DNA from: Planctomycetota bacterium
Lineage (GTDB): Bacteria; Planctomycetota; Phycisphaerae; UBA1845
NCBI GenBank assembly: GCA_030616775.1
Contig: JAUWWQ010000046.1
Coordinates: 1-32,000 of the forward strand
DNA length: 32,000 nt
Reading direction: 5' to 3'
The position numbers were made by a program, and so were the translations under genes. Positions 9,758 to 17,021 of the stretch are shown piece after piece; positions within the stretch are counted from its first letter, which is position 1, and every line of letters begins with the position of its first letter. The notes under the pieces were generated by a model. It was not told the origin of the DNA. It searched no databases and saw nothing but the letters and a program-made list of their open reading frames with translations.

Positions 9758-9773
9758 ATGGCAATAGTGCCAT
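9758..9773. promoter_or_regulatory. Putative ArsR-type operator upstream of the molybdoenzyme operon
   Basis: Near-palindrome ATGGCAATAGTGCCAT, matching 14/16 positions of the reverse complement of the site at 10275-10290 upstream of arsR-1. Confidence 0.6.
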
Positions 9774-9779
9774 TAGCGA

Positions 9780-9814
9780 ATTAGACCATTAGACCAAAAA
9801 GCGATTGATGTCAA
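9780..9814 (-). promoter_or_regulatory. Candidate minus-strand promoter for the molybdoenzyme operon
   Basis: Minus strand TTGACA (9809-9814), 15-nt spacer, TCTAAT (9788-9793), with a second TCTAAT copy at 9780-9785. Confidence 0.4.
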
Positions 9815-10256
9815 GATGACGGGTAGGAATAGCGTTATGCTTTTGAAAACATATTGCCTTGGCTCCGTGACACCGGTTTGTACCCGCTCGACCGGTGACC
9901 AAGTCGGCAAGTCGTAGCGTACCCGCCGCGGCGACGAAGGACCGGGCAAAGCGTCGAGCCAGGCGCGCCCGGGGAAGGTCACGCTCTTGTAACACCGCGG
10001 TCCACGGCACCTCGTCCATCTGGCCGGCTGTGGCGAGGCGTGAAAGGAAGTGTCTCCCCAGCTCACCGAGTCCCGGGGAGCAGGAAGAAGACGTATAACT
10101 TGTTTATTCGCAATGGCTTACGCGAATCAGCAATCTCGGTCGAGGTCACAATCTTGTGGCTCCACCGCCGTCGGCGCATGGCCATATCGCCCCTGGCGGC
10201 GGGCGTGGAGGGGAAAGAGTTCGGGACAGACCGAAGAAATGAAGTGAGCTGCGAGC

Positions 10257-10284
10257 TTGACGGCGTCTGAACTCATGGTAATAT
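10257..10284 (+). promoter_or_regulatory. Candidate arsR-1 promoter
   Basis: TTGACG (10257-10262), 16-nt spacer, TAATAT (10279-10284). Confidence 0.5.
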
Positions 10285-10290
10285 TGCCAT
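10275..10290. promoter_or_regulatory. Putative ArsR operator
   Basis: Near-perfect palindrome ATGGTAATATTGCCAT overlapping the -10 and ending 6 nt before the arsR ATG. Confidence 0.6.
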
Positions 10291-10296
10291 AGACGT

Positions 10297-10620
10297 ATGA
10301 AACGCAAGCCGATCCAACACTACGAGGCGCGAGCGGCGGTTGCCAAGGCCCTTGCCCACCCCAGCCGGCTATTGATGCTCGACGCGCTGGCAAAAAAGGA
10401 GATGTGCGTTTGCGACCTGACTGAGCTAGTCGGGGCCGATCAGTCGACCGTGTCGAAGCATCTCGCTGTGCTTAAACACGCAGGGATTGTCGATGTTCGA
10501 AGAGACGGAGTCATGACGTATTACAGGATGAAGATCCATTGCCTTGAAGGCTTTTGGAAGTGTGTTGAGTCCGTGCTCAGGCAGAACCTGAAGGATCAGA
10601 GCGCGGCGCTGGGCGTGTAA
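10297..10620 (+). CDS. arsR: ArsR/SmtB-family metal(loid)-responsive repressor (copy 1)
   Basis: 107 aa winged-helix: AKALAHPSRLLMLDALAKKEMCVCDLTELVGADQSTVSKHLAVLKHAGIVDVRRDG; CVCDL is the typical thiol metalloid-binding motif. Confidence 0.93.
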   Translation: MKRKPIQHYEARAAVAKALAHPSRLLMLDALAKKEMCVCDLTELVGADQSTVSKHLAVLKHAGIVDVRRDGVMTYYRMKIHCLEGFWKCVESVLRQNLKDQSAALGV

Positions 10621-10666
10621 GGATTCTCTCTTTTTCGTCAATGTATGGTACAATGCCCATAAAGCA

Positions 10667-14049: not shown

Positions 14050-14160
14050 TTGTGCCTCCCGGGTTGCAGGCCCTCATGCGCCGGGCGCCGTCGATCGTCT
14101 CTCTCACGTCGCTGCCGTGGGCGTTGCCTGCTCCGCATAACCGCTGTCCGTCGTCGCTGC

Positions 14161-15321
14161 TTAGAAGAACCGCCCGGCCAGCCACAGACCGGTGCCTATC
14201 ACCGCGCAGGCCGCCTGAACGGGCACTGCCACACGCATTTCCCGGCGAACGCCGGACAGCGACGTGTAGGTTGAGGCCCCGGTAAAGTTCATAGCCACGT
14301 AACTCACCACCGCAGGTATAAGCAGCAGCCAAGCGCCTGTGCTTGCCGGATTCTCAAAAGTGCCCGGATGCGCCCACGCAAACGCACTCAAAGACAAAAC
14401 AAGGATCAGCCCGAGCCAGGCCCCTTTTGCGGAAAACGCCCTTCCGGGCAGCCAGGGCAGCAGCACGGGCGTTAGTACGGCACCAACCGCAAACGCAGCA
14501 AGCAACAGTGCTGCGCTTTGCACGCCTTCGGTTCCCGCTCGGTGGAGCGAATAAATCCCCGGACCCAGCCCTGCCAACACGAGAAAACAGGCCGCCAGGA
14601 ATAGCGCGTGTTTCGCCCCTGTAACCAGTTCGAGCGGGATGAGGACCACACGCTCGCGGAAAGGAAACTGCACGCGACGCATCTGCGGTGTCGCCTTCAT
14701 GCCGGCGCTTACAAACGCGGGAATATCCTCCGCACGCACCGGCCCGAAGACCACGCTAAAACCGGATCGTCGTGCCACCTCGTGGGCACTGACACCGGGA
14801 GCGCCCAACTGCGGAACCACAAGCCGTCGATGGGAAACGACCTCGCCCAGGCCCACGACATCCACCCGTTTGGCGATCTCCTCAGTGCCGAAGGTCCCCT
14901 TGCCCGCTGCGCACCAGACGTTGACCCCCTTGGTATCCAGCACCAGGATCCAGGCGTCCAGGCCACCCAGTTGCGAGCGAAGCCGGTCGAAGCTCATCTT
15001 GTAGTTGGCTGACACCAGCACCGGAGACTCTTGTGTTGGAGACCCCGCGGCGTACAACCCCGGCTCCACCCGAAAGCGCATCCGACCGATTCCCCATCGC
15101 ACCTTCCAACAGCCCACACGATCTGCCCTGGTCAAGGTTGTGGATGTTCGGGGAACGTCGCCGACCGGAGTGCCAACCGTCCCCTCAATCCAAGGTTCGA
15201 CGATCGAGGGAGGCTTTCGATCAACTCTCGCAGGACCGCTTGCCTGGCAGCAGGTCGACTCCGGCGGGTCATCTGTCGGTACGTCACAACTAGAGGACGT
15301 TGTCGCCCGCAGCTCGTCCAC
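14161..15321 (-). CDS. hgcA: HgcA, corrinoid protein required for mercury methylation
   Basis: 386 aa; RFRVEPGLYAAGSP...PVLVSANYKMSFDRLR...DAWILVLDTKGVNVWCAAGKGTFGTEEIAKRV...HRRLVVPQLGAPGVSAHEVARRSGFSVVFGPVRAEDIPAF; about five TM helices at the C-terminus. GTG start with AAGGGAG SD. Confidence 0.97.
   Translation of the reverse strand: MDELRATTSSSCDVPTDDPPESTCCQASGPARVDRKPPSIVEPWIEGTVGTPVGDVPRTSTTLTRADRVGCWKVRWGIGRMRFRVEPGLYAAGSPTQESPVLVSANYKMSFDRLRSQLGGLDAWILVLDTKGVNVWCAAGKGTFGTEEIAKRVDVVGLGEVVSHRRLVVPQLGAPGVSAHEVARRSGFSVVFGPVRAEDIPAFVSAGMKATPQMRRVQFPFRERVVLIPLELVTGAKHALFLAACFLVLAGLGPGIYSLHRAGTEGVQSAALLLAAFAVGAVLTPVLLPWLPGRAFSAKGAWLGLILVLSLSAFAWAHPGTFENPASTGAWLLLIPAVVSYVAMNFTGASTYTSLSGVRREMRVAVPVQAACAVIGTGLWLAGRFF
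14899..14922 (-). other. hgcA: HgcA cap-helix signature NVWCAAGK
   Basis: Codons for residues 134-141 read NVWCAAGK, an exact match to the published N(V/I)WCA(A/G)GK consensus. Confidence 0.98.
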
Positions 15322-15333
15322 CCAATGACTCCC

Positions 15334-15495
15334 TTAAAGGCTCAACAATAGCCAGAAGCCAACCCCGATCAACACCACGCCGGCCTGGTTGCGAATCGCC
15401 CCCGCCAGGACGCCGGCAAAACGTGACAGCCTGCCGAGACTCACTCCCAACATGGCAACTGTCAAGGGCGCGGCGTACCCGGCAGCGAACTCAAA
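15334..15495 (-). pseudogene. Probable C-terminal remnant of a CcdA/DsbD/ArsG-type permease, directly upstream of hgcA
   Basis: Minus-strand translation FEFAAGYAAPLTVAMLGVSLGRLSRFAGVLAGAIRNQAGVVLIGVGFWLLLSL* resembles the C-terminus of such transporters; no N-terminal part is present. Confidence 0.45.
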
Positions 15496-15506
15496 GCATC
15501 GCCGCC

Positions 15507-15535
15507 TTGACGACCCAGACCGTCCAGCCTAACAT
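15507..15535 (+). promoter_or_regulatory. Candidate arsR-2/ACR3 promoter
   Basis: TTGACG (15507-15512), 17-nt spacer, TAACAT (15530-15535). Confidence 0.5.
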
Positions 15536-15554
15536 ATACGCCTGAGTGTATATG
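15533..15554. promoter_or_regulatory. Putative ArsR operator for arsR-2
   Basis: Perfect inverted repeat CATATAC-N8-GTATATG, overlapping the candidate -10 and the arsR-2 start region. Confidence 0.6.
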
Positions 15555-15944
15555 ACGAACTCCCTGGTGTCAACCAACACGGTCTTCCGAGCGTTCGCCG
15601 ACGAAACGCGCCTGCGATTGCTTAACCTTCTGCTGGAGCGTGAGCTGTGCGTGTGTAATCTGTGTGCGATCCTCCGGGAGATTCAGCCTAAAATATCGCG
15701 GCATCTTGCATACCTTCGGCGGGCCGGCCTGGTCACGGTGCGGGAGCAGGGCAAGTGGAAATACTACGCGGTGCCGAAGAATCCCTCGGGGCTCGAGCGA
15801 ACGCTCCTTCGTTGCGTGAAATCGTGTCTTAGAGAGATTGATGTTCTCCAGGACGACCTGGACCGCCTGCAAAACATGCAGGCGGACATCAAATGCACCA
15901 AGACGGTCAAACGTTTGGGAGGCCAAGCAACAACGGAGATTTGA
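15546..15944 (+). CDS. arsR: ArsR-family repressor (copy 2)
   Basis: 132 aa; VFRAFADETRLRLLNLLLERELCVCNLCAILREIQPKISRHLAYLRRAGLVTVREQGKWKYY. Start may be GTG 15546 or ATG 15552. Confidence 0.93.
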   Translation: MYMTNSLVSTNTVFRAFADETRLRLLNLLLERELCVCNLCAILREIQPKISRHLAYLRRAGLVTVREQGKWKYYAVPKNPSGLERTLLRCVKSCLREIDVLQDDLDRLQNMQADIKCTKTVKRLGGQATTEI

Positions 15945-17021
15945 ATGGTGAGCGGTGAGCGCCTGAAACGGCTTTCGTTCTTGGACAGGTATTTGACCCT
16001 GTGGATCTTTCTGGCAATGGCCGTGGGCGTGGGCGGCGGCTACTTCTTCCCCGGCGTCGAAGGCTTCATCAATCGGTTTCAGGTCGGGACCACGAACATT
16101 CCCATTGCCATCGGCTTGATCCTGATGATGTACCCGCCGCTGGCCAAAGTGAAGTATGAAGAACTCGGCGATGTGTTCCGCAACGTGAAGATTCTCGGCC
16201 TGTCCCTGGTCCAGAACTGGATCATTGGGCCGATCCTGATGTTCCTGCTGGCGGTCTTGTTTCTCCGTGGATACCCGGAGTACATGGTCGGACTGATCAT
16301 CATCGGCTTGGCCCGTTGCATCGCCATGGTGATTGTCTGGAACGACCTGGCCAAGGGTGATTCGGAGTACGCTGCCGGACTGGTGGCGTTCAACTCGATA
16401 TTTCAGGTCCTGTTCTTCTCGGTGTATGCCTGGGTGTTTATTACGAAACTGCCCCCCCTGCTGGGCCTGACCGGAGCAGAGGTTGACGTGACCATCGGTC
16501 AGATTGCCGAGAGCGTCTTCATCTACCTCGGCATCCCGTTCCTGGCCGGAATGATCACGCGATTCGTGATGCTCAAGACAAAGGGCCGTGAGTGGTACGA
16601 AGCGAAGTTCATCCCGAAGATTTCACCGATAACGCTTATCGCTCTCCTGTTCACCATCGTCGTCATGTTCTCCCTGAAGGGCGAACACATCGTCCGGTTG
16701 CCGCTCGACGTCGTCCGCATCGCGATCCCGCTGTGCATCTATTTTGTCGTGATGTTTCTCGTGTCGTTTTGGATGGGTAAGAAGCTGGGGGCGAATTACG
16801 CGAAGACGACGACGATTGCCTTCACGGCCGCGAGCAACAACTTCGAACTTGCCATTGCCGTCGCGGTGGCGGTATTCGGGATCGGTTCCGGCGTAGCCTT
16901 TGCGGCGGTAATCGGCCCGCTGGTCGAGGTACCTGTTCTGATCAGCCTGGTAAATGTGGCTCTATGGTTCCAGCGCCGCTACTTCGCGGACCATGCCGCA
17001 GTGGCCGTCAAGGTCACGTAG
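15945..17021 (+). CDS. ACR3-family arsenite efflux transporter
   Basis: 358 aa; [27 protein letters not shown]...[19 protein letters not shown]...[39 protein letters not shown]; abuts arsR-2. Confidence 0.95.

Follow-up and report, generated by a model that had tools for sequence, protein, structure and literature searches.

The 32,000-nucleotide stretch analysed here, called the window throughout, comes from a Planctomycetota bacterium of the Phycisphaerae (assembly GCA_030616775.1, contig JAUWWQ010000046.1) and carries hgcA and hgcB among genes of the arsenic resistance (ars) type. Our results indicate that the region is probably a single Phycisphaerae-type ars operon, arsR1-arsP-arsE-(DGC)-arsF-arsG-acr3, interrupted between arsG and acr3 by an arsR2-hgcAB block, and that the link of hgcAB to arsenic is probably regulatory and ecological. 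HgcAB is the only known route to methylmercury, and its association with arsenic is among the few leads to its native function and regulation.

The evidence for the interruption comes from six distinct Phycisphaerae contexts of arsF that we sampled. In this class the order is commonly arsR-arsP-arsE-(DGC or other gene)-arsF-arsG, often followed by ACR3, without hgcAB. Two of the compared sequences, L168 and L169, have arsR-arsP-arsE-DGC-arsF-arsG and then ACR3 after a spacer of 44 nt; in L173 an ACR3 (SBF) gene also starts 44 nt after arsG, and hgcAB is absent from all three. Among the contexts sampled, hgcAB occurs in the window-like contigs only. Protein identity between the window and L168 is 79% for ArsR1, 86% for ArsG and 94% for ACR3. 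At the DNA level the two are homologous up to the stop codon of arsG and again from about 12 nt ahead of the acr3 ATG, which places a block of about 2.2 kb (13706 to ~15932) in the arsG-acr3 spacer. The minus strand of the block encodes hgcB, hgcA and a gene remnant, and its plus strand encodes arsR2. An initial annotation of this DNA had described hgcAB as lying between two arsenic-type resistance modules; the comparison with L168, L169 and L173 points instead to one ars operon split by the arsR2-hgcAB block.

Genes were called from six-frame open reading frames (ORFs) together with NCBIfam and Pfam scans. All nine genes of the locus are real and above the cut-offs of their curated families. 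The features are as follows (scores in bits against the curated cut-off):

10297-10620, plus strand: arsR1, ArsR/SmtB repressor with an MCVCDL motif (NF033788, 90.6 against 55)
10667-11995, plus strand: permease of the ArsP_1/DUF318 family (arsP), 442 aa, vicinal-Cys CSCS in a transmembrane segment (PF03773, 264 bits)
12007-12267, plus strand: arsE, small thioredoxin-like protein of the MTH895/ArsE family (Trx_3) with GCPKC (TIGR00412, 98 against 62)
12307-12474, plus strand: remnant of a DGC-domain gene, C-terminal 56 codons (tblastn with the L168 DGC protein)
12483-13016, plus strand: arsF, N-terminal membrane anchor, disordered linker and thioredoxin-fold domain with CRTC (NF040494, 102 against 60)
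13025-13705 (likely extent; ORF from 12956, alternative GTG), plus strand: arsG, SPCP and FCP motifs (NF040495 equivalog, 296 against 200)
13706-13749: convergent spacer of 44 nt between the arsG and hgcB stops; left edge of the block relative to L168
13750-14049, minus strand: hgcB, ferredoxin with two [4Fe-4S] clusters (NF040864, 121 against 99)
14161-15321, minus strand: hgcA, corrinoid protein with a transmembrane domain (NF040863, 463.5 against 275)
15334-15490, minus strand: remnant of a CcdA-like gene (DsbD2x, see below), last 52 codons and stop; deletion junction at ~15479-15490
15507-15573: divergent control region of arsR2 and hgcA, with promoter-like sites and a palindrome
15546-15944 (likely ATG at 15552), plus strand: arsR2, ArsR/SmtB family with ELCVCNLC; its stop abuts the acr3 start
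15945-17021, plus strand: acr3, arsenite efflux permease, conserved Cys in RCIAM (GLARCIAMV) (TIGR00832, 467 against 283)

The gene identities given in the initial annotation were all confirmed by the family scans, and so was its layout: the plus-strand series arsR1 to arsG converges on minus-strand hgcBA, with the stops (13705/13750) 44 nt apart, and hgcA and arsR2-acr3 point away from each other, the hgcA and arsR2 ORFs being 224 nt apart. The seven ars-type genes of the window are all on the strand opposite to hgcAB. ArsE, ArsF and ArsG each exceed the cut-off and follow one another in the order E-F-G within the ars operon, as they do in L107, L037 and L168-L174. The ArsP-family permease has PF03773 and the CSCS pair and scores below the equivalog cut-offs of SaoE (118 against 325) and SO_0444 (108 against 300). 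Compared with the Pfam model, it has an insertion of about 100 aa between its halves, common to the 431-442 aa versions in L037, L080, L107, L170 and L172-L174.

Relatives of the locus and integrity of hgcAB

Among species-representative genomes, the closest HgcA (92% identity) is that of L001, a metagenome-assembled genome (MAG) of the Phycisphaerales. A metagenome scan for closer HgcA relatives gave a best match only 73% identical; closer ones came through the search with ArsF, whose homologues are annotated as Phycisphaerae/Planctomycetota. L166, a JGI contig, aligns without gaps to window positions 10982-21016 at 94.3% DNA identity and has the same layout, including TrkA, FolC and AroB downstream. 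L167 has the window layout from arsP to hgcA. Within a population-level clade, then, the arrangement is a stable one.

In L001, two extra genes stand between arsR2 and hgcA. They encode a Cys-rich single-pass protein of 110 aa and a CcdA/DsbD-type membrane protein of 238 aa, here called DsbD2x. The difference is seen between window 15334-15490 (minus strand) and L001 8812-9823: in the lineage of the window and L166, some 983 bp were deleted, and with them went the Cys-rich gene and most of DsbD2x. The other remnant, in the arsE-arsF gap, matches the L168 DGC protein with 46% identity (E = 8e-11), and a DGC gene (PF08859) is intact at this position in L168 and L169. DGC genes also accompany arsE/arsF near hgcAB in L008, L018, L037, L058, L114 and L139.

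L001 consists of contigs joined by exact 100-N spacers (404-503, 6363-6462, 8411-8510 and 11330-11429). The last two of these joins bound the hgcA contig, which is only 2.8 kb long, so L001 is uninformative on flanking genes, and its use as a closest relative without ars genes within 10 kb was dropped. The MAG "chromosome" records CP0706xx-CP0708xx (L001, L016) are concatenated contigs, and neighbourhoods that cross their N runs are artefacts.

The hgcAB ORFs are intact, with complete catalytic motifs, and are under purifying selection. HgcA covers positions 1-324 of the 325 in profile NF040863. Its translation includes the cap-helix motif NVWCAAGK within GVNVWCAAGKGTF, which matches N(V/I)WCA(A/G)GK with the Co-ligating Cys. 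The N-terminal extension carries a CC motif (STCCQAS), the Cys counterpart of the Cys-Sec motif of most HgcA proteins (Haft & Gwadz). HgcB, whose gene starts 111 nt after hgcA, has the motifs CTGCGVCTEVC and CMECGACALNC, the Cys in GVGCA and a C-terminal CC (...ATCCE). The ratio of nonsynonymous to synonymous substitution (dN/dS) of hgcA was 0.24 against L166 and 0.24-0.27 over the comparisons made; that of hgcB was 0.30 against L166 and 0.16 against L001. Between the window and L166, in both of which the genes are all intact, the values were 0.32 for arsR2, 0.11-0.16 for the ars genes and 0.11-0.37 for housekeeping neighbours. HgcAB is predicted to methylate Hg(II).

Divergence between the window and L166 has a local hot spot at arsF (82.6% nucleotide identity, synonymous divergence dS 0.65); neighbouring genes are about 95% identical, with dS of 0.11-0.15, and a portion of arsP is raised to 0.31. 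Recombination with a divergent allele could account for the arsF values.

Genes beside hgcA in other genomes

We surveyed 160 hgcA loci, made up of 80 from GTDB species representatives, where ars-type genes were counted within 10 kb, and an independent set of 80 metagenome contigs. One or more ars-type genes were present in 43 of the 80 GTDB loci. The most frequent were arsR (37 loci), ACR3 (22) and arsC (22), followed by arsE (11), arsP (8), arsF and arsG (7 each), and DGC and arsD (4 each). These neighbours shared the strand of hgcA in 145 of 147 cases, and 20 of the 24 ACR3 genes lay within 2.5 kb of hgcA, a distance that represents 31% of the available flank. The metagenome contigs repeated the pattern. 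Co-location of hgcAB with ars genes is more than chance and recurs in several phyla. The initial annotation had proposed counting the ars neighbours of hgcA homologues, and this count bears out their enrichment.

The combination of hgcAB with arsE, arsF, arsG or arsP is a recurrent, minority pattern, found in 20 of the 160 loci (~12%). These loci belong to Planctomycetota, Lentisphaerota, Kiritimatiellota, Bacteroidota and Bacillota, and the genes are nearly always co-directional with hgcA. The clearest layout is that of L107, where arsR-arsP-arsE-arsF-arsG is followed after 170 nt by hgcA-hgcB, all in one direction. L037 (Lentisphaerae) has this gene set plus DGC, arsC and an SBF transporter, with arsF-arsG upstream of hgcA, not adjacent to it. 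In L006, L085 and L114, arsF-arsG lies directly upstream of hgcA, and in the Bacteroidota loci L025, L030 and L047 hgcAB is embedded in long ars operons. What sets the window apart is that its hgcAB is antisense to the neighbouring ars genes, which elsewhere generally share the strand of hgcA. In L018, L031, L037, L080 and L114, from the Planctomycetes-Verrucomicrobia-Chlamydiae (PVC) superphylum and some Bacillota, the SBF-family protein next to hgcA is about 35% identical to the window ACR3 and forms a distinct subfamily.

DsbD2x, present as a remnant in the window, belongs to the CcdA/DsbD superfamily, where ArsG forms a sister family to it (hhalign probability 97.4%, E = 1e-11). The motif CC(N/S/G)P is invariant in DsbD2x, and no curated family matched it above the cut-off. 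[quoted passage not shown] DsbD2x stands upstream of hgcA in Planctomycetota and Bacteroidota (L001, L010, L015, L016, L025, L030, L036, L054, L071, L087, L099, L103, L105, L106, L121 and L161-L165), and the Cys-rich partner has 86-249 aa and 7-21 Cys. A profile search gave 531 clusters, mostly annotated "CcdA"; the three clusters sampled were all in arsR-...-Cys-rich-DsbD2x-hgcA-hgcB-(arsC)-ACR3 operons. The long Cys-rich proteins upstream of DsbD2x were considered as ArsF homologues and rejected (hhalign probability 0.4%). In the literature searched, no paper paired hgcA with "cytochrome c biogenesis", none combining DsbD or arsG with hgcA surfaced, and no description of the DsbD2x family was found.

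It is conceivable, although we consider it rather doubtful, that a protein of the CcdA/DsbD superfamily (ArsG-type or DsbD2x) and an anchored Cys-rich or thioredoxin-fold protein, both encoded directly upstream of hgcA as in loci of Planctomycetota and Bacteroidota, act as accessory partners of HgcAB that have gone unrecognised. If this were true, a membrane thiol relay or metal(loid) hand-off would supply HgcAB, and its native role would be tied to the arsenic/thiol-redox system; in that case a deletion would have taken one pair from the window, a natural variant that retained arsF-arsG next door. The recurrence of DsbD2x beside hgcA, a side result, may be of more consequence than the window. 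The set of genes linked to hgcAB widens from arsR, acr3 and arsC to a group that resembles a thiol relay (ArsE/F/G, DsbD2x and Cys-rich anchors) and to ArsP, all of them candidates for substrate delivery, reduction or export.

Putative control regions and rival explanations

Because hgcAB is on the strand opposite to every ars gene, it is not co-transcribed with those of the window, and the gene arrangement leaves the divergent arsR2 promoter region as the only plausible coupling between them. This region (15507-15573) contains an arsR2 promoter-like site, TTGACG-17-TAACAT, on the plus strand and the palindrome CATATAC-N8-GTATATG (15533-15554), which differs from the ArsR1 palindrome described below. 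On the minus strand, a promoter-like site TTGACA-17-TACACT (15573-15545) faces hgcA and overlaps the palindrome. Between the window and L001 there is no difference in the arsR2 promoter-like site or the palindrome, although the sequence upstream of these diverges. ArsR2 has the canonical As(III) site ELCVCNLC, with all three Cys of the type-1 triad; a CxC is carried by 23 of 25 hgcA-adjacent ArsRs elsewhere.

We propose that arsR2 now drives acr3, with its promoter and operator back to back with the sequence remaining upstream of hgcA. By analogy with the ArsR-hgcAB unit of P. mercurii ND132, hgcAB would most likely be transcribed divergently and de-repressed by arsenite through ArsR2. Such an ArsR2-controlled, arsenite-responsive hgcA is the most economical model because the control region is the only upstream sequence left after the deletion. 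Published experiments on ND132 showed that ArsR controls hgcAB and that arsenic induces it. In the same organism, an arsR-arsP-arsE operon at a separate locus is co-induced with hgcAB by arsenic, as is a Psr/Arr-like operon.

ArsR1 would separately autoregulate arsR1-P-E-F-G through a different, conserved palindrome. Its MCVCDL motif has two Cys only and is thus a partial match to the type-1 As(III) site. The palindrome ATGGTAATATTGCCAT at 10275-10290 overlaps the arsR1 promoter-like site TTGACG-16-TAATAT (10257-10290, plus strand). It is conserved in five other operons: unchanged at -22 relative to the arsR start codon in L170 and L172, as variants at -22 in L168/L169 and L173, and as a copy with one mismatch, about 100 nt upstream of the called start, in L174. 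A second, 16-bp palindrome of this operator-like type, ATGGCAATAGTGCCAT, is at 9758-9773, 539 nt upstream of arsR1, and the region marked out in the initial annotation begins with it. With up to three mismatches allowed, the 32-kb window contains these two sites only (0.67 expected). An operator common to the arsR1 promoter and the region upstream of hgcA was looked for and not found, the ArsR1-type palindrome being present only at 9758 and 10275.

The palindrome at 9758-9773 lies about 90 nt upstream of divergent genes for a PhsA/PsrA-like molybdopterin oxidoreductase and an Fe-S subunit (6516-9667, minus strand). Since a second ArsR1-type palindrome sits upstream of it, this molybdoenzyme pair may belong to the ArsR1 regulon. 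Its identification as ArrAB was rejected (ArrA 202 against 1600, ArrB 68 against 450); the best match was PhsA, at 300 against 694. The gap of 629 nt from the molybdoenzyme gene to arsR1 (9668-10296) has no convincing ORF, the candidate being one of 76 aa without a Pfam match, and its folding is unremarkable (z = -1.0). Rfam scans by gathering and E-value thresholds detected no riboswitch or small RNA in this gap, in the hgcA leader or elsewhere in the window, and a scan of the window found no tRNAs. The remaining genes are housekeeping ones (FolC, AroB, Maf, TPR proteins). An exact-sequence look-up of the window ACR3 returned no record.

The chemistry of the ars genes bears on whether they could serve HgcAB directly. 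The ArsG family profile matches the CcdA structure PDB 5VKV over its full length (E = 8e-4), and ArsG is a six-helix membrane protein of the CcdA/DsbD_2 type with two Cys-Pro motifs. In an AlphaFold model of ArsF, residues 66-177 have a predicted local distance difference test (pLDDT) score above 90 and CRTC stands where helix 1 begins; the model's top Foldseek matches in the PDB are all thioredoxin-fold proteins, mostly thioredoxins. Bacteroidota homologues of ArsF have N-terminal sequences that resemble lipoprotein signal peptides. Sequence searches of the PDB with ArsF and ArsP gave nothing meaningful. With a CcdA-like ArsG and an ArsF that carries its thioredoxin fold on a membrane anchor, ArsEFG resembles a thiol relay and not a product exporter. 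ArsE on the cytoplasmic side, ArsG in the membrane and ArsF on the periplasmic side are predicted to form a trans-membrane thiol-reducing relay, and ArsP and ACR3 would be the efflux components. Export of an HgcAB product by ArsG is unlikely; ArsP, with its CSCS pair, remains a candidate exporter. The curated product names of ArsEFG may not describe their mechanism.

The initial annotation had suggested that the locus may be one organometal(loid) system, in which HgcAB makes a methylated product and a Cys-rich permease exports it; the product would be methylmercury and the permease ArsP or ArsG. We consider such a pathway improbable. Several observations agree with it: arsE/F/G/P recur beside hgcAB in the 20 loci noted above, nearly always on the same strand; in L006, L085, L107 and L114 the gene immediately before hgcA is arsG; and the vicinal CSC pair of ArsP is typical of soft-metal(loid) exporters. 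Haft & Gwadz also describe an organometallic locus that has the ArsP-family SaoE and a thioredoxin-like protein, and point out parallels to HgcA in Cys/Sec motifs. However, the ars genes of the window are on the opposite strand and have a different ArsR and operator, and the folds of ArsG and ArsF point to electron transfer rather than export. Nor is the coupling obligate, since hgcAB is missing from five of the six Phycisphaerae arsRPEFG contexts sampled and arsE/F/G/P from about 88% of the hgcA loci. Well-studied methylators, moreover, export methylmercury without arsE/F/G/P. Of the proposal, the association of hgcAB with ars genes is real and probably regulatory, and the single pathway with export by a permease is unsupported.

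HgcAB might instead act on arsenic itself, for example by corrinoid-dependent methylation of As(III), with the flanking ars genes reducing, chaperoning and exporting the arsenical. This, too, is improbable in our view. It would agree with the presence of hgcAB inside ars operons of many lineages, beside arsC, acr3, arsD and arsM, and with the As(III)-type CxC sites of the ArsRs that precede hgcA. In ND132, hgcAB is arsenic-induced and the wild type is less sensitive to As(V) than the hgcAB knockout; nevertheless, Gionfriddo et al. found no significant loss of arsenic resistance on loss of hgcAB function (10.1101/2022.10.17.512643). No methylation of arsenic by HgcAB is reported, several such loci already encode ArsM, and the window sequence gives no discrimination between the substrates.

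We give as little credence to neutral hitch-hiking, by which the arsR2-hgcAB block would have come into the ars operon, or been kept there, by chance or owing to recombination hot spots in metal-resistance islands, with no regulatory or functional link in this organism. The opposite orientation of hgcAB to all ars genes favors it. So do L002, L003 and L081, whose HgcA comes next in similarity (73-76% identity) among the relatives with real flanks and which have no ars neighbours, and the DGC and DsbD2x remnants with the arsF hot spot, by which the locus is being remodelled. But the association is too frequent, too close and too strand-biased across phyla for chance, the block has its own As(III)-type ArsR beside hgcA with a conserved control region, and hgcAB is under purifying selection.

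The interruption of one ars operon by an arsR2-hgcAB block, with a regulatory and ecological link to arsenic, is thus the reading we prefer. The link would consist of a common ArsR-type regulon and recurrent residence in ars operons rather than demonstrated shared chemistry. Several points weigh against this reading. L168 has a different flanking context and is not a strict empty site, and the event may have been an insertion in the window or, in the lineages of L168 and L173, a precise loss. Promoters and operators were assigned by match to a consensus and by conservation in one other sequence. If the deletion took away the native promoter of hgcAB, as it may have done, hgcAB could be poorly expressed. 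The 44-nt spacer between arsG and hgcB has no stable hairpin (z = 0.5, 0.1) and the terminator scan was empty there, so that transcriptional interference is possible; with convergent transcription, arsenic induction could antagonise hgcAB expression. The relay model also conflicts with the names that Chen, Zhang and Rosen reportedly gave in 2019, ArsEF for a nitro-reductase and ArsG for an efflux permease.

Together with the comparator operons free of hgcAB, the locus offers a concrete case of an arsR-hgcAB block inside an ars operon, with defined candidate operators. It suggests that exposure to arsenic, not to mercury, may govern hgcAB expression in sediment bacteria of the Phycisphaerae type.

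Comparison with known systems

Neighbourhoods of hgcAB with ars genes and hgcAB controlled by ArsR have been published (PMC7438021; 10.1101/2022.10.17.512643; PMC11984097; PMC10349881), and the initial annotation was right that ArsR-like regulators near hgcAB had been reported (McDaniel 2020; Gionfriddo 2022/2023; Peterson 2025). In the literature searched, the reported neighbours are arsR, acr3/arsB, arsC, arsM, arsA and arsD only, and we found no report of ArsP or ArsFG-type genes with hgcAB, in line with the annotation's remark that it was aware of no description of this combination. The physical linkage of hgcAB to ArsP/E/F/G-type genes therefore appears to be new. Also new are the evidence of an arsR-hgcAB block interrupting a defined ars operon and the recurrent CcdA-like and Cys-rich partners of hgcA. 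As in the published loci, which include genomes of the PVC superphylum, an ArsR with an As(III)-type Cys motif and ACR3 adjoin hgcAB in the window. The published loci differ in that ArsP, ArsE, ArsF, ArsG and the CcdA-like gene are not reported there. In the window, moreover, arsR is divergent rather than co-transcribed upstream, and the block is antisense within the ars operon.

The ars operon itself resembles that of Shewanella putrefaciens 200 in having the same three NCBIfam families in the order E-F-G, control by arsR and an ArsP-family permease. In that strain, ArsEFG is said to confer resistance to the organoarsenicals roxarsone and nitarsone, in work attributed to Chen, Zhang and Rosen in 2019, which PMC9144182 cites. 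Sequence and fold in the window fit a thiol-disulfide relay better than a nitroreductase with an efflux pump. Operons of this type occur widely in anaerobic Phycisphaerae and Bacteroidota, for which a synthetic aromatic arsenical is an improbable native substrate. Relays of the CcdA-ResA and DsbD type combine the parts predicted here, namely a thioredoxin-like donor in the cytoplasm, a membrane protein of six helices that has two Cys-Pro motifs, and an anchored CxxC acceptor of thioredoxin fold outside the cytoplasm, whereas the window set is in an ars operon and not in a context of cytochrome c maturation or spore coat.

The permease shares with Campylobacter jejuni ArsP the PF03773 domain and a vicinal Cys pair in a transmembrane segment. 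A small thioredoxin-like gene follows the permease in the SAO locus (SaoE and SaoT) and in many DUF318 loci, as it does here; the window permease differs from SaoE and SO_0444 in falling under the equivalog cut-offs and in its extra insertion of about 100 aa. Finally, DsbD2x recalls the mercury transporters MerT, MerC and MerF, by analogy only, in its CC(N/S/G)P in a membrane helix and its pairing with a Cys-rich single-pass protein. It has no sequence homology to the Mer transporters, and the window has lost the DsbD2x gene.

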